Source of the DNA: Abditibacteriaceae bacterium
GTDB lineage: Bacteria; Armatimonadota; Abditibacteriia; Abditibacteriales; Abditibacteriaceae
Assembly (NCBI GenBank): GCA_031372065.1
Contig: JANMKN010000352.1
Location: forward strand, 1 to 30,436
Length of the DNA stretch: 30,436 nucleotides
Reading direction: 5' to 3'
Numbering within the stretch: the first letter of the stretch is position 1; the number at the start of each line of letters is the position of its first letter. The notes below the pieces were generated by a model that saw only the letters and a program-made list of their open reading frames with translations, had not been told where the DNA came from and ran no database searches. The translations under genes were made by a program, and so were the position numbers. Shown here one piece after another: positions 52 to 7,581 of the stretch.

Positions 52-1272
52 TCAATTACGCCGCGCGGAAAAAGCTAAAACGGGCAGCAAAAAGAGAAAC
101 GACAGCGCCACAATGACCGCTGAAGCGGGCAAATCCATTAGAAACGAAAGATGTAAGCCGAAGACAACGGGCACAGCGCCGAAAAACAAAGTGGCAGGCC
201 ACACTTGCCGCATTCTTTGCGCCAGCAAAAGCGAAGTCACCGCAGGAATAATCAGCATGGTCGTCGCCATCAAAACGCCGGTGGCGCGAATCGAGAACGA
301 AATCACTACACCGATGGTGAGATACAACAAAAAATCCCAACGTGTGGCGTTGTAGCCCATTGTAGAAGCGGCATCGCGATCAAAGGAAACCAGCAAAAAT
401 TCTTTGCTAAACAAGGTGTGAATGACGGCGACAACCGCGAAAATACCGAGCATTTGCATGGTTTCCTCTGGCGCGATGGTTAAAATATCGCCTTGCAAAA
501 GTTTCAGCATATGCGTTTCGCCTTGAGCGCTTTTAGCGATACACAATATAGCCATAGCGCCCGCCACAGAATACACAATGCCGATAATGCTTTCCGACGG
601 CACACGCCGTGGCGACCAGCGCACGGCAAACATTGTCACGCCGACAACCACTAAAAGCATGGCACCCCAGATTGGCGAAAAGCCCAGCCACAAGCCAACC
701 GCTATGCCCGCCGATGACAGTTCGGCCAGCGCCACACCAACGAAAACGATGCGCTTCAAAACTACATACACACCCAAAAACGAACACATCAGCGCCACTA
801 AAATTCCCGCAAATAAAGCGTGACGCAGAAAATCAATTTGAAAGGTGTGGCCCAAATCGAACCAGCCGATAGTGTGTCCATCGGGCGCCGAAAACTCTGT
901 CTCAGTAAACGTTTGCATCGACGTTGGAGGCGTAGTTGTTTGTGTTGGCGCGACAGAGTTGGCCGAATTACTGCCAGCAGGCACGTCGGCGATAGGCAAA
1001 TCTTCGACGTTGGTCGCTTTGGTTGGCGCGCCTATTGGTGCCACTTTCGGCGTGCTAACGGTTGTTGTAACGGATTTTGGCGTTGCTACTGCTGTCGGCT
1101 TTGGCGCGGGTTTTAGCGTAGCTGTTGGCGCCGTTTTAGGCGGCGCGGTTTTCGATGTGACGGGCGTTGGTATCACATCTTCGATGGGTAAATCTTCGAC
1201 GTTTTTTTGCGCTAATGACGGCAACACCAACAAACAGAGCAAGGCCAGCGGCGCGAATTTTTTAGAGGACAA
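52..1272 (-). CDS. Metal (Zn/Mn) ABC transporter permease, ZnuB/ABC-3 family, with an atypical signal peptide and ~120-aa Pro/Thr/Ala/Lys-rich N-terminal extension
   Basis: C-terminal ~260 aa show ABC-3 hallmarks (CSFLGVYVVLKRIVFVGVALAELSSAGIA, LQGDILTI, FLLVSFDRDAA, IPAVTS). TTG start follows GAGGGAG and overlaps the ATPase stop by 11 bp. Confidence 0.92.
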   Translation of the reverse strand: MSSKKFAPLALLCLLVLPSLAQKNVEDLPIEDVIPTPVTSKTAPPKTAPTATLKPAPKPTAVATPKSVTTTVSTPKVAPIGAPTKATNVEDLPIADVPAGSNSANSVAPTQTTTPPTSMQTFTETEFSAPDGHTIGWFDLGHTFQIDFLRHALFAGILVALMCSFLGVYVVLKRIVFVGVALAELSSAGIAVGLWLGFSPIWGAMLLVVVGVTMFAVRWSPRRVPSESIIGIVYSVAGAMAILCIAKSAQGETHMLKLLQGDILTIAPEETMQMLGIFAVVAVIHTLFSKEFLLVSFDRDAASTMGYNATRWDFLLYLTIGVVISFSIRATGVLMATTMLIIPAVTSLLLAQRMRQVWPATLFFGAVPVVFGLHLSFLMDLPASAVIVALSFLFLLPVLAFSARRN

Positions 1273-2014
1273 CTTTCACTCCCTCAATCTCAACCACGCG
1301 TAGCGGCACGCCGTAAAGTTTTTCCAAAAACGACGATTGCAAAACCTCTTCGACAGGCGCCGTTTGAAAGGTGCCGTGGTTGATAATGCCGATTTCCAGC
1401 GCGTGATTGGCAACCGTATTCAGCGAATGGCTCACCATCACAACCGCCATGTGATGCCGCGCGTGCAGTTCATCAATCAAAGTCATAATGGCACGCTCGG
1501 CAACGATGTCAAGATCGTTGGTATGTTCGTCCAAAACCAAAACCTGCGGGTCGCAAACCAAAGCCCGCGCGATGAGAGTGCGCTGCTTCTGACCACCCGA
1601 TAAATCACGATACAAGCGCTCGGCGTGCGCCGCGATGCCAGTTTCTTCGAGCGATTCCAAAGCGTGTTGCACATCGGCAGGCGCGGGCCGTTTCAATGCA
1701 CCGATTTGCCCGTAGCGGCCCATTAAAACCACATCCAAAACCGTAAACGGAAACAATTCTTCGACAGTTTGCAATTGTGGCACATAACCAAAGCGAAGTT
1801 TCGGAGCGCGTGTCACCTGCCCGGTTTTAGGCGCAATTAAGCCCAATAAGCCGCGCAAGAGTGTGGTCTTCCCGGCGCCGTTGGCGCCGACGATTGCTAA
1901 GTAATCGCCGGCGCGCAGCACAAAAGAAACGTTTTGCAAAATAGGTTTCTTGCCGTAACCGAGCGCCACCGATTCAAAGCGCAGCAGTTCTTGTTTTTCA
2001 GCCATGATTTTCAT
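1262..2014 (-). CDS. Metal ABC transporter ATP-binding protein (ZnuC/MntA-like)
   Basis: Walker A GANGAGKTT, Q-loop YVPQ, signature LSGGQKQR, Walker B VLVLDE, H-loop VSH. Start is 2014 or 2005. Confidence 0.95.
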   Translation of the reverse strand: MKIMAEKQELLRFESVALGYGKKPILQNVSFVLRAGDYLAIVGANGAGKTTLLRGLLGLIAPKTGQVTRAPKLRFGYVPQLQTVEELFPFTVLDVVLMGRYGQIGALKRPAPADVQHALESLEETGIAAHAERLYRDLSGGQKQRTLIARALVCDPQVLVLDEHTNDLDIVAERAIMTLIDELHARHHMAVVMVSHSLNTVANHALEIGIINHGTFQTAPVEEVLQSSFLEKLYGVPLRVVEIEGVKVVL

Positions 2015-2035
2015 TCCAGCGGCATAAAATTGCTT

Positions 2036-2944
2036 CTATTGGCTGAGTGCCTGCTTAGTTTTGTCCACCATCATGTCAATGAGATCGAAATAGGTTTTGG
2101 TGCCCATCGCGCCCACTGAATATGGCGAAACCACATATTTCACGCCGATAGTGCGCGACACCAAGTCGGGATATTTAGTGGGAAAAATGGACTCGATCAC
2201 CAGAGCTTTCACGCCGTCTTTTTTCATGCCGCTCATCAGGTTATTGACGTGCGCCGCTGACGGCGGAAGACCCGGTTTTGGCTCCAACGTGCCGTAAAGA
2301 TTCAAACCAAAACGACGCAAAAAATATTCGTAATCTTCGTGGTAAGTCACCACCGGTTTACCGGCATAGGGCGCCATTTCTTTTTTCCAGCCTTCCATGT
2401 GCCCGTCAATGTCCTTGTAAAAATCGGCCAGTTGGCTGCGATAATAATCGGCGTTAGCAGCATCTACGCGAATGAGGCCCTTGACGATGTTGCGCGCCAC
2501 AAATTTCGCGTAAATCGGATCATAAAAATAATGCGGGTTGCCATCGGGATGCACATCGCCGCTGGCGCCGGTAATGCTCGAATTGGGTCTGTCCAAAACG
2601 GGAATACCTTCTGAAGCGTCTATATAAGCGTTGCCGCCTTTGTTCAGTTTGGTGTTGCCTGCGGCGTTCATCAGCGCGTCCATCCACACGTCCAAACCCA
2701 ACCCCGAACGCACTAATAAATCAGCTTTGGCAATGCGCTGCACCAGGCTGGGGCGAGGTTCAACGCGGTGATAATCGTTGTTCGGTAGCGCGATGACATC
2801 AACATGAACTTTGTTGCCGCCCACTTCGCGCGCAATGGCGCCGAGTTCGGGCACCGAGGCCACGATGTCGGTTGCCGCGTGTGCGGCTTTGAAAGAAGGC
2901 GCGAAAAACAGCGCCGCCAGCAAAAAAACTTTGATTCGTTTCAT
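2036..2944 (-). CDS. Metal ABC transporter substrate-binding protein (ZnuA/TroA cluster A-I)
   Basis: Signal peptide ending AAHA; metal-ligand motifs DYHRVEP, GDVHPDGNPHYF, YHEDYEY; EPKPGLPPSAAH. Confidence 0.95.
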   Translation of the reverse strand: MKRIKVFLLAALFFAPSFKAAHAATDIVASVPELGAIAREVGGNKVHVDVIALPNNDYHRVEPRPSLVQRIAKADLLVRSGLGLDVWMDALMNAAGNTKLNKGGNAYIDASEGIPVLDRPNSSITGASGDVHPDGNPHYFYDPIYAKFVARNIVKGLIRVDAANADYYRSQLADFYKDIDGHMEGWKKEMAPYAGKPVVTYHEDYEYFLRRFGLNLYGTLEPKPGLPPSAAHVNNLMSGMKKDGVKALVIESIFPTKYPDLVSRTIGVKYVVSPYSVGAMGTKTYFDLIDMMVDKTKQALSQ

Positions 2945-2949
2945 GATTT

Positions 2950-4365
2950 CTACTCCAAATTATGAGTGTGCGGGCCGATGCCCGCCGTGAATTGCAAGCG
3001 CAATTCGTTGTATGACTGCGCGCCACGCTGCCCGTGCGTGCCCATCAAGCGCAAATAAAATTGCTCGGTGAATTGTTTGGTGTAAATCAGCGACGAAGCG
3101 TTTTCACGCACGCCCGGCGCTTGCGGAAAACCGGAATTTTCGTAAAGCAAACCAACGTCGTTGAATTTATCCAAGCGATAATTCACCAAGCCATAATAGC
3201 CATCGGCGCTCTTGGTCAACAAACCGCCGAAGGGCTTGTATTTGAAATACTCGCTGCGCAAGAGCAAGCGCTTGTTGTCCTGTAAATAACGGCGATACGT
3301 CAAATCCGCGCCATACAATTTCACGCGTCCGACAGAATTCGCGCCGTTGTCCAACCCCAAAGTCGAAGGCCCCTGTGCATAAGAAAATCCGCCGTCTAAT
3401 TCCGCTTTTTCGCCCAAAGGACGCCCGATCCACACGCGCCCGTTATAAAAGCGATCATTAAATCCGGCACCCGTTCCGTGCGGCACTTCACCAAAGAACG
3501 GATCGCCCGGATTGCTCGCATTGATTTGTGTTGACGAACCTTGGCCGGTGAAAGAGCCAAAGCTGGCACGCACAAAATTTTTGCCCTTCAGCGGTAGCAG
3601 ATAATGCAAATTCACGCCATCGCCGACCAAGGCTTCGGGCGACACTAAATTTTGAATCGGCAACAACTGGCGAGGGTAAAGCCACGAGTGATTGTGCGTT
3701 TCGCCTGTGCGTCCAAATGGCGCGAACTTGCGGCCCACATTCAGACTCAGGCCCTTTTTCAAACCCAAAAAGGTCAAATAACCTTCTTCAATTTGAAACG
3801 GTTCGTCTTCCGCAGGCGCCGCCGTGATAAACGTGTCAACCTTGATGCCCGGATAAACATAGCCCTGAATGGCTAATTCACCTTCGTCCAAGTTCAAGCG
3901 TCGCCTTGCAGCATCACGCTTATCCGAACCAAACAAACCTTTCGCTTGCAAAATAAAACTGATGTCAGGCAACAGCAGATAATTGCGACTGCCCGTGCCC
4001 GAAGGCTGCGCTCCGCCGCTATTTGTGTTTGGGGCCTCCAATGGCGGCGGCGTTTCGGTAGTCGCTGGGGAAGGTATTACCGAAGGTGCGCCACCGTTCT
4101 TCTTTTTCAAGTCTTCGACATCTTTAAGCAGCTTTTCCCAAATGGCGCGCGGCACCATAATCATCTCGCCGCTGGCAACGGAATTACTTGGCGCTTTTGG
4201 CACAGAAGGTGTGGCAGCTTTTGAAGGCGTAGCCGCATCAATCGGCAAATCTTCGATGTTTTGCGCGAAAGTTTGTGCCGCAGACATCAGCAACGCGCCG
4301 CTTAAAACAGTCGTGGTCATTCCAAAGGCTCTTTTTTTCTTCACTTCGATTTTTCGTCCAGTCAC
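2950..4365 (-). CDS. Putative outer-membrane beta-barrel/porin-like metal uptake protein with His-containing C-terminal tail
   Basis: GTG start after AAAAGGAG; signal peptide; PDISFI..., IEEGY, VGRKFAPFGRTGETHNHSW; alternating beta-strand pattern; ends IGPHTHNLE. First gene of the ABC operon. Confidence 0.72.
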   Translation of the reverse strand: MTGRKIEVKKKRAFGMTTTVLSGALLMSAAQTFAQNIEDLPIDAATPSKAATPSVPKAPSNSVASGEMIMVPRAIWEKLLKDVEDLKKKNGGAPSVIPSPATTETPPPLEAPNTNSGGAQPSGTGSRNYLLLPDISFILQAKGLFGSDKRDAARRRLNLDEGELAIQGYVYPGIKVDTFITAAPAEDEPFQIEEGYLTFLGLKKGLSLNVGRKFAPFGRTGETHNHSWLYPRQLLPIQNLVSPEALVGDGVNLHYLLPLKGKNFVRASFGSFTGQGSSTQINASNPGDPFFGEVPHGTGAGFNDRFYNGRVWIGRPLGEKAELDGGFSYAQGPSTLGLDNGANSVGRVKLYGADLTYRRYLQDNKRLLLRSEYFKYKPFGGLLTKSADGYYGLVNYRLDKFNDVGLLYENSGFPQAPGVRENASSLIYTKQFTEQFYLRLMGTHGQRGAQSYNELRLQFTAGIGPHTHNLE

Positions 4366-4381: not shown

Positions 4382-4405
4382 TTGATAAAACGATTGCATT
4401 TTCAA
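4382..4405. promoter_or_regulatory. Candidate Fur/Zur operator upstream of the porin-ABC operon
   Basis: AT-rich imperfect palindrome TTGATAAAA-cgattgc-ATTTTCAA just upstream of the RBS. Confidence 0.4.
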
Positions 4406-4433: not shown

Positions 4434-5237
4434 TTAATGGCCGTGTGCAAATAAAAACGTCATGCCGTAAGCGAAAACAAAGCCTATTACCGTGGCAATG
4501 GTAATCAGCAAACCTTCGTCTTCGAAGTGCGCTTCGGGCAGTAAATCGCAAGCGCCGACATAGAGAAAACTGCCGCCCGCCACGCCCAATAAAAAGCCGC
4601 TCATGGCTTCATTAACCGGCAAAACCGCATACGAAAGTGCGCCCCATACGATAAAAGAAGCCGTTAGCGCCGTCGAAATCCAAATCTGTCGGCGCGGCGT
4701 GCCAAAGCGCAACAAAAGCGCGCCCAAACTGATGCCAACGGCCACTTGATGCAGCACCAGAGCGCCGATAACCAGGCCGCCCGCAATTTGTGACACGCTA
4801 AAAGCTGCTGCGGTGATCAGCCCGTCTATAAAATTGTGTAGCCCGATGCCAAGCAAAGTGGTCGTGGCGTGCGTGTGAACGTGCCCCACCACATGATCGA
4901 AATGATCTACCGGATTTTCGTGATGCACGTTGCAGCTTTGATGACTTTTTTGGCGCTGCACACGGCACGAATTAAAATGAGTGCAGCGCTCCACCACATA
5001 AAGCAGCATGAAACCAAGTCCGGCGCCAGTGAGGGCATGGGAACCAGCTTTTTTCAAGCCTTCGGGCAACAATTCAAACAGCGAAGTCGCCAGCATCATG
5101 CCAGCAGAAAAACCAATAACAATCGCAATGCGATTGACCGAGAGCCACGTCCGCGCCGCCGACGGCAAAGCCGAGCCGAAAACCAGCGACGCGGCAGCCA
5201 ACAACGCAAAAAATGTGGATGAGACAACTTCAGGCAT
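4434..5237 (-). CDS. ZIP (ZupT/GufA-type) divalent metal transporter
   Basis: GFSAGMMLATSLFELLPE, His-rich loop (HHENPVDHFDHVVGHVHTH), LHNFIDG, LHQVAVG, AGGSFLYVGACDLLPEAH. Confidence 0.93.
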   Translation of the reverse strand: MPEVVSSTFFALLAAASLVFGSALPSAARTWLSVNRIAIVIGFSAGMMLATSLFELLPEGLKKAGSHALTGAGLGFMLLYVVERCTHFNSCRVQRQKSHQSCNVHHENPVDHFDHVVGHVHTHATTTLLGIGLHNFIDGLITAAAFSVSQIAGGLVIGALVLHQVAVGISLGALLLRFGTPRRQIWISTALTASFIVWGALSYAVLPVNEAMSGFLLGVAGGSFLYVGACDLLPEAHFEDEGLLITIATVIGFVFAYGMTFLFAHGH

Positions 5238-5352: not shown

Positions 5353-5392
5353 AAGAAAACGACGCTATTTACTAAAATAGCGTCGTTTTCTT
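5353..5392. terminator. Intrinsic terminator downstream of the Fur-family gene
   Basis: Perfect 18-bp stem AAGAAAACGACGCTATTT / AAATAGCGTCGTTTTCTT with a 4-nt loop. Confidence 0.75.
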
Positions 5393-5423: not shown

Positions 5424-5840
5424 TTATTTCTTGTGGGATTTGCTTTTTGTCGCACAATCGGGGCACAGGCCGTAAATGGTCAGTTCGTGATCGTCGACGA
5501 TAAAACCGCCCGCGATGGGTTGGCCTTTGGGAAAATGCACCGGGCACACGTTAATATCGAAAACTTGCTCGCATTTGCGGCACTGAAAATGTTCGTGATG
5601 GCCGAGGCCGGTTTCTTCGTAGCGCGTGTCGCCGGTGGGCAAAACCACGCTTTGAATGCGTTCGGCTTCCTGTAAAAGTTTGACAGTTCGGTAAACTGTA
5701 GCGATGCCAAGGCGCGGAAAAAGAATGCAGGCGCGCTCGTGGATTTCCGGCACCGAAAGCGGCCCGTTTGCCACTTCGATGACCTGAAAAATCGCCTCAC
5801 GCTGGCGCGTTTGACGCTGTCCGAGTTGGGTGGAATCCAT
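5424..5840 (-). CDS. Fur-family transcriptional regulator, probably Zur
   Basis: RQTRQREAI, GIATVYRTVKLL, HHEHFQCRKC, GLCPDC; lies next to ZIP and ZnuABC-like genes. Confidence 0.92.
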   Translation of the reverse strand: MDSTQLGQRQTRQREAIFQVIEVANGPLSVPEIHERACILFPRLGIATVYRTVKLLQEAERIQSVVLPTGDTRYEETGLGHHEHFQCRKCEQVFDINVCPVHFPKGQPIAGGFIVDDHELTIYGLCPDCATKSKSHKK

Positions 5841-5856
5841 AAGGCAATTATATTCT

Positions 5857-5896
5857 TATTGATAGGCTGTTTCAACAATGAAAACCATTTCAAATC
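5857..5896. promoter_or_regulatory. Candidate tandem Fur/Zur boxes in the fur / glutaminyl cyclase divergent region
   Basis: TATTGATAGGCTGTTTCAACA followed by ATGAAAACCATTTCAAA. Confidence 0.35.
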
Positions 5897-6783
5897 AATC
5901 GAGAACTCAATCGGGTGCGCTGCAAAAGCGCGATAAATTGGCCGCCAAAAGCGCCAAATGGCCGCTTTTGCTGGCGTTTTTGGCCTTAAGCGGAGCCGGT
6001 TGGAATGTTTTGCGCACCAGTTCGGCGCCGCTTGCGCCAACTGTCACGCAAACCACCACACAAACAATCGCGCCGGTTTACGCGCAAAAACTGGGCTGGA
6101 AAGTGGTCGGCATTTACCCGCACGATGCCAAGGCGTTTACGCAAGGTTTGCAATGGCACGACGGCGGTTTTTATGAAGGCACCGGACTCGAAGGCCAGTC
6201 GCAATTGCGCCGCGTGGAATTTCCATCGGGCCACGTTTCAAAACAGCGCGACTTGCCCAAAGAAGTTTTCGGCGAAGGCATTACTTTGGCGGGCGACAAG
6301 ATTTATCAACTGACGTGGCAAACGCATATCGGCTACGTTTATGACCGCGCCTCATTCAAGTTACTCAGCCAATTTACTTATGCCAACGAAGGCTGGGGCT
6401 TGACTTACGACGGCCAAAATCTCGTTCAAAGCGACGGCAGCGACAATCTCACTTATCTTGACCCGCAAAATTTAACGCCGGTGCGTCAACTGCCGGTAAC
6501 GATGAACGGCCAGCCGGTAAAAAACCTCAACGAACTGGAATGGATTAACGGCGAAATTTGGGCGAATCTCTGGCAAACCGACAAAGTTGTGCGCATTAAT
6601 CCAGAGACGGGACAAGTAAATAGTTATTTCGATTTCACCGATTTACTGCCCGATAAAATGCGCACCGGCAACGAAGATGTATTAAATGGCATCGCTTACG
6701 ACGCGGATAAAAAACGCTTGTTTTTAACTGGCAAGCAGTGGCCGAAATTGTTTGAAATCAAAATCATTGACGGCACCACTTAA
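5878..6783 (+). CDS. Glutaminyl-peptide cyclotransferase (type I, plant/bacterial beta-propeller QC) with N-terminal membrane anchor
   Basis: YPHDAKAFTQGL, YEGTGLEG, FGEGIT, QLTWQ, EGWGLT, SDGS, LNELE, ANLWQ, VLNGIAYD, TGKQWP. Exact start uncertain. Confidence 0.93.
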   Translation: MKTISNQSRTQSGALQKRDKLAAKSAKWPLLLAFLALSGAGWNVLRTSSAPLAPTVTQTTTQTIAPVYAQKLGWKVVGIYPHDAKAFTQGLQWHDGGFYEGTGLEGQSQLRRVEFPSGHVSKQRDLPKEVFGEGITLAGDKIYQLTWQTHIGYVYDRASFKLLSQFTYANEGWGLTYDGQNLVQSDGSDNLTYLDPQNLTPVRQLPVTMNGQPVKNLNELEWINGEIWANLWQTDKVVRINPETGQVNSYFDFTDLLPDKMRTGNEDVLNGIAYDADKKRLFLTGKQWPKLFEIKIIDGTT

Positions 6784-7301: not shown

Positions 7302-7581
7302 TATTTCAAAAGTCCAAGAACTGAGAAAATCCTCTTCAAAGTGGGCGCAAGCCACATGGCATGGAGTTAAGGGAATTTTGAAGGTATTCGGAGCCAAAGA
7401 GTATTGTCATCCTGAGCCTGCGAAGGATCTCTGCAAAATAGGTTCAGTCACGCAGATATCCTTCGCAGGCTCAGGATGACAATACTCCCCTTTTCACTGG
7501 ATTCCTAACGTGTAAAAAGCTCTACTTACCCCTTAACTCCATGCCATTGGGCGCAAGCCCCGCTCTTGGACTTCTGAAATA
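7302..7581. mobile_element. Nested non-autonomous inverted-repeat elements (MITE/REP-like), three concentric IR pairs
   Basis: Outer IR 7302-7319/7564-7581 (17/18). Middle IR ATGGCATGGAGTTAAGGG 7356-7373/7530-7547 (18/18), flanked by direct repeat TGGGCGCAAGCC at 7342-7353 and 7548-7559. Inner IR 7399-7434/7452-7487 (35/36). Confidence 0.8.

Follow-up and report, generated by a model that had tools for sequence, protein, structure and literature searches.

The window considered here, the whole 30,436-nucleotide stretch that was analysed (contig JANMKN010000352.1 of assembly GCA_031372065.1, from a bacterium of the Abditibacteriaceae), carries on its minus strand a metal-uptake operon in the order fur, zip, outer-membrane porin, znuA-like, znuC-like and znuB-like. 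Two of its products, the porin and the ZnuB-like permease, bear the same short acidic motif on arms that are predicted to be disordered. Our analysis makes it probable that the motif docks both arms into a basic groove on the operon's soluble metal-binding protein of the periplasm, which is ZnuA-like, so that both membranes capture, and hand over, one and the same carrier. The motif is restricted to the two proteins and conserved in them, and elsewhere in the Armatimonadota both proteins have switched jointly to a polyproline tip along with a change in the ZnuA groove.

The three copies of the motif lie on the minus strand where a sequence-only reading of the window had placed them: NVEDLPIEDV (1174-1203) and NVEDLPIADV (982-1011) in the permease extension, and NIEDLPIDA (4234-4260) in the porin. 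The permease tip copy, in the form modelled on ZnuA, is NVEDLPIEDVIP (1168..1203); the mid-tether copy (982..1011) is a second copy of a kind that recurs in many homologues; and the porin copy proper, NIEDLPID (4237..4260), begins one residue past the predicted mature N-terminal Gln. In line with that reading, two of the copies sit after an A|Q site behind a hydrophobic N-terminus (cleavage judged by eye), the linkers beside the copies are 63-74% Pro, Thr, Ala or Ser, and the copies differ synonymously, in 3/9, 3/6 and 2/6 codons for identical residues. Its worry that the motif might recur in many unrelated secreted proteins did not materialise, since N[VI]EDLPI matched only three times in the six frames of the 6,144,282-base source genome (G000; other G and L labels denote related genomes and loci), with none outside this operon. 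A position-specific scoring matrix (PSSM), trained on 28 motif copies from relatives only, placed the three copies at the top of the 48,269 stop-to-stop frames of the genome, with scores of 34.8, 32.6 and 21.9. The motif was confirmed, and its definition proved too narrow, the consensus being [QTDA]N[PIV]EDx[PDE][IL]xD[ED]xxP. It stays conserved, and is often repeated, within disordered sequence that otherwise changes fast, as is typical of short linear docking motifs.

The possibility that orthologues had lost the motif was likewise not borne out. Fifteen of the 26 other genomes of the family encode the porin, and in all 16 porin-bearing genomes, G000 included, the motif is present on both porin and permease, the porin copy of G006 being degenerate and the permease of G017 lying in broken frames. 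A signal-like start is present in 88 of the top 99 porin homologues, and 72 of these matched the motif strictly; inspection by eye divided the remaining 16 into nine variants, six truncated gene calls and one sequence without the motif, and at ranks 100-120 just 1/16 had it. An extension of at least 50 residues was found in 56 of 102 permease homologues, 39 of them with the acidic motif in one to four copies, 14 with polyproline (one has both) and four with neither, and the motif was in none of 120 ZnuA homologues. A profile of signal peptide plus motif, searched against 1.84 billion representatives, gave seven matches, six of them to this porin/permease family and the seventh to a repetitive protein of 3085 residues; because so short a profile has little reach, this limits other carriers of the motif without excluding them. 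A search of plasmids gave no match. The loose DNA pattern EDxP[ILFMV]xD matched between 1 and 11 times per genome, also in genomes that lack the operon, and so says little on whether the motif is restricted in relatives. Together, the genome matches, the PSSM and the profile search ruled out that the acidic motif is a general secretion tag across the proteome.

The porin occurs in 91 of 401 Armatimonadota genomes, and 56 operons were examined, of which 14 belong to the family and 42 lie outside it, with better matches favoured (G017 and G002, with broken frames, and L137, a locus without ZnuA or permease, are not in this table of pairs). The acidic motif was on both porin and permease in 14 operons, ten scored by script and four by eye; in three of these four the motif is further along the arm or follows a gap of N, and in one the porin copy is degenerate. 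In 13 operons a polyproline tip lies directly behind the signal peptide of both proteins, and in four it is on the porin while the permease is armless; a mixed acidic/polyproline pair was found in 0/56. In a ZnuA tree (midpoint root) the acidic class forms one clade (100/99) and the polyproline class another (100/99), whose sister is the porin-only group; acidic and polyproline classes are not sisters. On balance we lean towards the view that this is a new kind of inter-membrane coupling, in which disordered arms with a shared motif pass a binding protein, and that its motif-groove code was written at least twice in the Armatimonadota: as acidic EDxPIxD with a basic groove, and as polyproline with a Tyr/Leu groove. 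As specific markers, polyproline patterns were rejected because of matches elsewhere in the same genomes; open in-frame matches fell only in the two operon genes of G103, and in about ten others in G054 (a frame count).

Where the groove lies was suggested by the ZnuA alignment, in which columns specific to a class cluster on helix 118-133 and on 264-274, and both clusters were recorded as the predicted docking site ahead of the complex model. When ZnuA (119 alignment rows) was modelled together with permease residues 1-30 (43 rows), the complex reached a score of 0.74, and the best of three controls 0.00; the mark used was reached by 116/157 solved complexes and 2/215 mismatched pairs, counts that are approximate with alignments built here. 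At least 62% of contacts were common to the runs, and the partner had a predicted local distance difference test (pLDDT) score of at least 60. On the peptide side the interface consists of residues 3-5, 9-11 and 13-14, which is the motif itself, and on the ZnuA side of residues 91, 120-121, 123-124, 127, 130-131, 134, 145, 148-149, 152, 170 and 186-189, so that the guess of helix 118-133 was borne out. Peptide Ile9 is modelled on I120/K123/F124/R127/Y152, and Glu5 near R127/K131/R145. Docking of the permease motif in this groove, whose predicted walls are helix 118-135 (2468..2521, minus strand; I120, Y121, K123, F124, R127, K131) and residues 145-152 (2417..2440, minus strand; R145, L148, A149, Y152), is a prediction in which we place more confidence than in the relay as a whole. 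The sequence-only reading had offered the ZnuA-like protein as one example of a partner, and for the permease peptide the controlled prediction upholds that choice, at a site that covariation had marked. Because the motif profile had no meaningful match in the PDB, and no solved structure of such a complex is known to us, a pass from predictor memory seems unlikely.

The residues of the groove vary with the tips. With L138, L114 and L125 set aside for frame errors, Lys or Arg at 131 was found in 14/14 of the acidic class and 0/39 of the others, and R145 in 14/14; Y127 and L131 occur in 12/12 of the polyproline class, as do H/Y127 and L131 in 4/4 of the porin-only group. Of the 18 interface residues, five are among the 23 class-specific columns (Fisher p = 0.01, a test that depends on the alignment). 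The net charge of the whole ZnuA protein overlaps between the classes and does not separate them. Among fresh metagenome loci, from which duplicates and three loci already seen had been dropped, the acidic porin tip was present in 8/8 with the basic-groove signature and an intact front, and in 0/24 without the signature; two of their permeases, missed by the script, carry the motif deeper in the arm.

Several observations weigh against the docking and handover that we propose. Half of the site recorded in advance, helix 264-274, lies outside the model interface and is unsupported. The model covers the tip peptide of the permease only, and the porin copy is a shorter variant (EDLPID), for which reason its PSSM score is low, 21.9 barely exceeding the 21.8 and 20.8 of the next unrelated matches. 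Kinship confounds the counts that associate groove and motif, those from the fresh loci included: as the tip classes are ZnuA clades, any clade marker would predict the motif, and the covariation amounts to only 2-3 independent events and not 56. The fresh locus L233 has the H127/L131 signature and no polyproline tip, and polyproline is also common elsewhere in the genomes that bear the polyproline tip. Lastly, 25/56 operons have neither type of tip and lack tethers altogether, so the arms are accessory.

If both copies do bind, as we consider probable, the porin copy would use the same groove of ZnuA as the permease copy. We take this groove to be on the back of the two-lobed ZnuA fold, beside the linker helix, which would leave the metal cleft free, and as there would be a single groove per ZnuA the two arms should compete and relay rather than bridge. 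A carrier held by the porin arm near the porin exit would be loaded there, after which the permease arms, being multivalent, would catch the loaded carrier and bring it to ZnuBC. With one to four copies per chain and a dimeric permease, the local concentration of carrier at the pump could be raised in this way. The metal would pass from porin to carrier to ZnuBC, driven by ATP.

Three other explanations of the motif were weighed, and all appear unlikely. The one to which we give the least credence is that the motif is an acidic Glu/Asp tip that chelates metal and gathers periplasmic cations without any protein partner. Its E, D and D are indeed the most conserved positions, at least three His occur in 23/39 of the permease tethers with the acidic motif, and tandem repeats of the motif exist; but the hydrophobic [IL] and the Pro are conserved as well, the motif contains no His or Cys, and in 13 operons the equivalent tip is polyproline, which is incapable of chelation. 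The ZnuA groove that varies with the motif and the passing prediction of the ZnuA complex also speak against it. Scarcely more probable is docking elsewhere, on the barrel or coiled coil of the porin, the surface of the permease, or a periplasmic protein from outside the operon. If the site were on the porin, displacement of its own copy by that of the permease would link the two membranes directly, and there are grounds for considering this, in that the near folds VhChiP and OmpM1 include porins with periplasmic N-terminal segments and monomer models are blind to sites that exist only in an oligomer. However, the motif region is of low confidence in both single-chain models (first blocks 62 and 64), and it is ZnuA that gives a confident site with matching covariation of charge.

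The remaining explanation, given much the same small chance, retains ZnuA as the partner of the permease arm and dispenses with the relay, the porin copy being either the evolutionary source of that arm or a tip for stability or processing. The four operons with a tip on the porin alone would fit a porin-first origin with later copying of that 5' end within the operon; most tips, once cleaved, start at Gln, and the operon has a glutaminyl cyclase gene as a neighbour; and some genomes have a degenerate porin copy. Yet nearly all members of the family retain the porin copy in spite of linker turnover, and copies in the middle of a tether cannot serve as processing signals. In the porin-only operons ZnuA already has the H/Y127-L131 groove, which speaks for binding of ZnuA by the porin tip on its own.

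The outer-membrane member of the proposed relay is a protein of 471 amino acids (2950..4365, minus strand) with a signal peptide, motif, tether, helix, linker, barrel and His-containing tail. Its AlphaFold2 (AF2) model, of the mature chain with a 102-row alignment, has a pLDDT of 86.7 and shows a low-confidence N-terminal arm, a periplasmic coiled-coil-like helix at mature residues 39-56 (4096..4149, minus strand) that probably oligomerises as a coiled coil, another disordered linker, and at 100-429 (2977..3966, minus strand) a barrel without a plug domain. Self-docking of the motif was not seen in the single-chain models of porin or permease, the first blocks having pLDDT values of 62 and 64. 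The closest folds to the barrel are Omp32, VhChiP, OmpT and OprP (Foldseek E 1e-10 to 1e-8, query TM-score (TMq) about 0.5), and the modelled plug-less beta-barrel of porin size fits the Omp32/OprP-like porin superfamily. With Omp32, VhChiP, OmpT and OprP/OprO it has the barrel fold in common, and differs from them in its sequence (7-13% identical), its invariant GPHxH tail and its motif-tipped arm. No match to the porin was found in Pfam or NCBIfam, nor a sequence relative in the PDB. Neighbours in the atlas carry the automatic name 'zinc-regulated TonB-dependent outer membrane receptor family', one cluster being 22% Porin_O_P. A TonB-dependent receptor, with its 22-strand barrel and folded N-terminal plug, was ruled out by the barrel of ~330 residues, by the lack of a plug and by an N-terminal region that is disordered bar one helix, and a TonB-dependent transporter was absent among the 45 fold matches listed for the model; with porins the closest folds and no plug in the barrel, the protein is a porin. 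Its C-terminal tail GPHTHNLE (2953..2976, minus strand) follows the last barrel strand, and G430, P431, H432 and H434 are invariant in the alignment of 102 sequences, making GPHxH a candidate metal-holding element. One homologue (L144, G288:C40) has an extra folded-looking N-terminal domain ahead of the coiled coil. Homologues of both the porin and ZnuA are encoded by the cultured species Abditibacterium utsteinense.

At the inner membrane, the ZnuB-like permease (406 amino acids; 52..1272, minus strand) combines a signal peptide and a periplasmic tether with a nine-helix core in its AF2 model (PF00950, residues 145-401). The extension, of about 120-126 residues, is predicted by AF2 to be disordered, the tether having pLDDT values of 43-64 by block. 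In Escherichia coli, ZnuB is a nine-helix dimer that has a cytoplasmic coupling helix and, between transmembrane helices TM4 and TM5, a periplasmic helix (PMC12236471). Given that nine-helix topology, the N-terminus and arm of the permease should be periplasmic, which would explain the added signal peptide. Between motif and membrane, His-rich stretches (at least three His) were noticed in 23/39 tethers with the acidic motif (e.g., L050, L051, L054, P0134 and P0169); the tether of the source genome has only two His.

The other core components are conventional. The ZnuA-like protein (2036..2944, minus strand) matched PF01297 with 177.8 bits against a cut-off of 29, and its metal-ligand His residues H35, H108, H114 and H178 are present in 53/53 sequences, while the permease matched PF00950 with 176.7 bits and the ZnuC-like ATP-binding cassette (ABC) ATPase (1262..2005, minus strand; AztA/MntA-like) matched PF00005 with 91.6 bits. 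A His-ligand PF01297 protein, an ABC-3 permease and an ATPase make this a metal ABC importer of cluster A-I (ZnuABC-type). Scores fell below the NCBIfam equivalog cut-offs for zinc throughout (AztC 114/350, ZnuA 67/268, AztB 116/280, ZnuB 70/284, AztA 175/220). ZnuABC, AztABC and PsaBCA consist of the same three core proteins (PF01297, PF00005 and PF00950); this operon departs from them in a permease with a signal peptide and a long motif-bearing tether, and in a co-encoded porin with the same motif. What is encoded here is thus at its core an ordinary cluster A-I importer with a porin, and it is the coupling principle that is apparently undescribed.

There are precedents for parts of the proposal. 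The P2 periplasmic loop of MalF, in the maltose importer, binds MalE with a Kd of 7-22 uM and aids its recruitment, and a MalE-MalF fusion occurs in Bdellovibrio (PMC6906923). As proposed here, a periplasmic extension of a permease there engages the binding protein. P2 is, however, a folded Ig-like domain found on the permease only, and here a linear motif of ~10 residues is repeated on a disordered arm and is also on the porin; with no folded domain predicted in the tether, the resemblance to MalF P2 is functional only. The TonB box is likewise a short N-terminal linear motif by which an outer-membrane transporter engages a periplasmic partner, but the present barrel is plug-less, its predicted partner is a solute-binding protein, and the permease has the same motif. 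In the MlaA-MlaC-MlaD and LolCDE-LolA-LolB systems a single soluble carrier visits a station in each membrane by turns. Those stations are folded surfaces for lipid or lipoprotein cargo, whereas the two proposed here would share one linear motif, borne on flexible arms, and would serve a metal carrier. In the open literature, judged mostly from listings and with subscription papers outside its scope, no linear motif shared by a porin and a permease was found.

The coupling of porin, binding protein and ABC pump is usually ascribed to free diffusion. If it is true, the relay would be a testable counter-example, defined by a 10-residue peptide, a soluble partner of 278 residues, encoded in its mature form at 2039-2872, and named contacts, with the polyproline/groove pair as a natural second motif-groove pair for swaps. 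It would also enlarge the small set of short linear motifs known from bacteria by one that acts in the periplasm, give a role to an unnamed porin family that is mislabelled as TonB-dependent, and hint at how bacteria of this family might scavenge scarce metal; orthogonal peptide-groove pairs might serve as periplasmic docking tags.

The metal transported is probably zinc, to judge from the ZIP and Fur-family neighbours and the His ligands of ZnuA. The Fur-family regulator (5424..5840, minus strand; PF01475) is first in the cluster and also upstream in G002 and G003, and the ZIP-family transporter (4434..5237, minus strand; PF02535) is also upstream in G001, G002 and G003. A different upstream gene was found in 42/56 loci examined, where a CruR/DUF2946-like leader open reading frame (CxxC...R[AGS]PP) precedes the porin (e.g., L028:5079-5477, L029:5059-5436, L032:5212-5709 and L041:2592-2975). 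CruR is a copper-responsive upstream open reading frame (PMC9426467). The likeness suggests that in Armatimonadota a ZnuABC-type operon may be controlled by metal-sensing ribosome stalling. No such leader was found in G000, G001 or G003, in which zip precedes the porin (with fur as well in G000 and G003). In G005, NikR-like and CbiM/NikM-like genes follow the operon (L029:11629-13238, by eye). These NikR/CbiM-like genes, the scores below the zinc cut-offs and the CruR-like leaders count against a firm assignment to zinc.

An imperfect palindrome, TTGAAAATGCAATCGTTTTATCAA in the minus-strand reading, lies 5' of the porin gene (4382..4405), and similar palindromes are present in G001 and G002. 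It is a candidate operator for the adjacent Fur/Zur-family protein, on evidence that is weak because a loose pattern matches the genome 75 times. Between fur and zip there is an 18-pair hairpin (5353-5392), terminator-like on the minus strand. The glutaminyl cyclase gene (5878-6783, plus strand) is divergent from fur, and with a predicted Gln start after cleavage and this gene nearby, both motif-tipped proteins may be pyroglutamylated. Further along the window, nested inverted repeats at 7308-7549 (about 7315-7370 with 7490-7549; 7406-7461) resemble, by eye, a small non-autonomous mobile element between genes.

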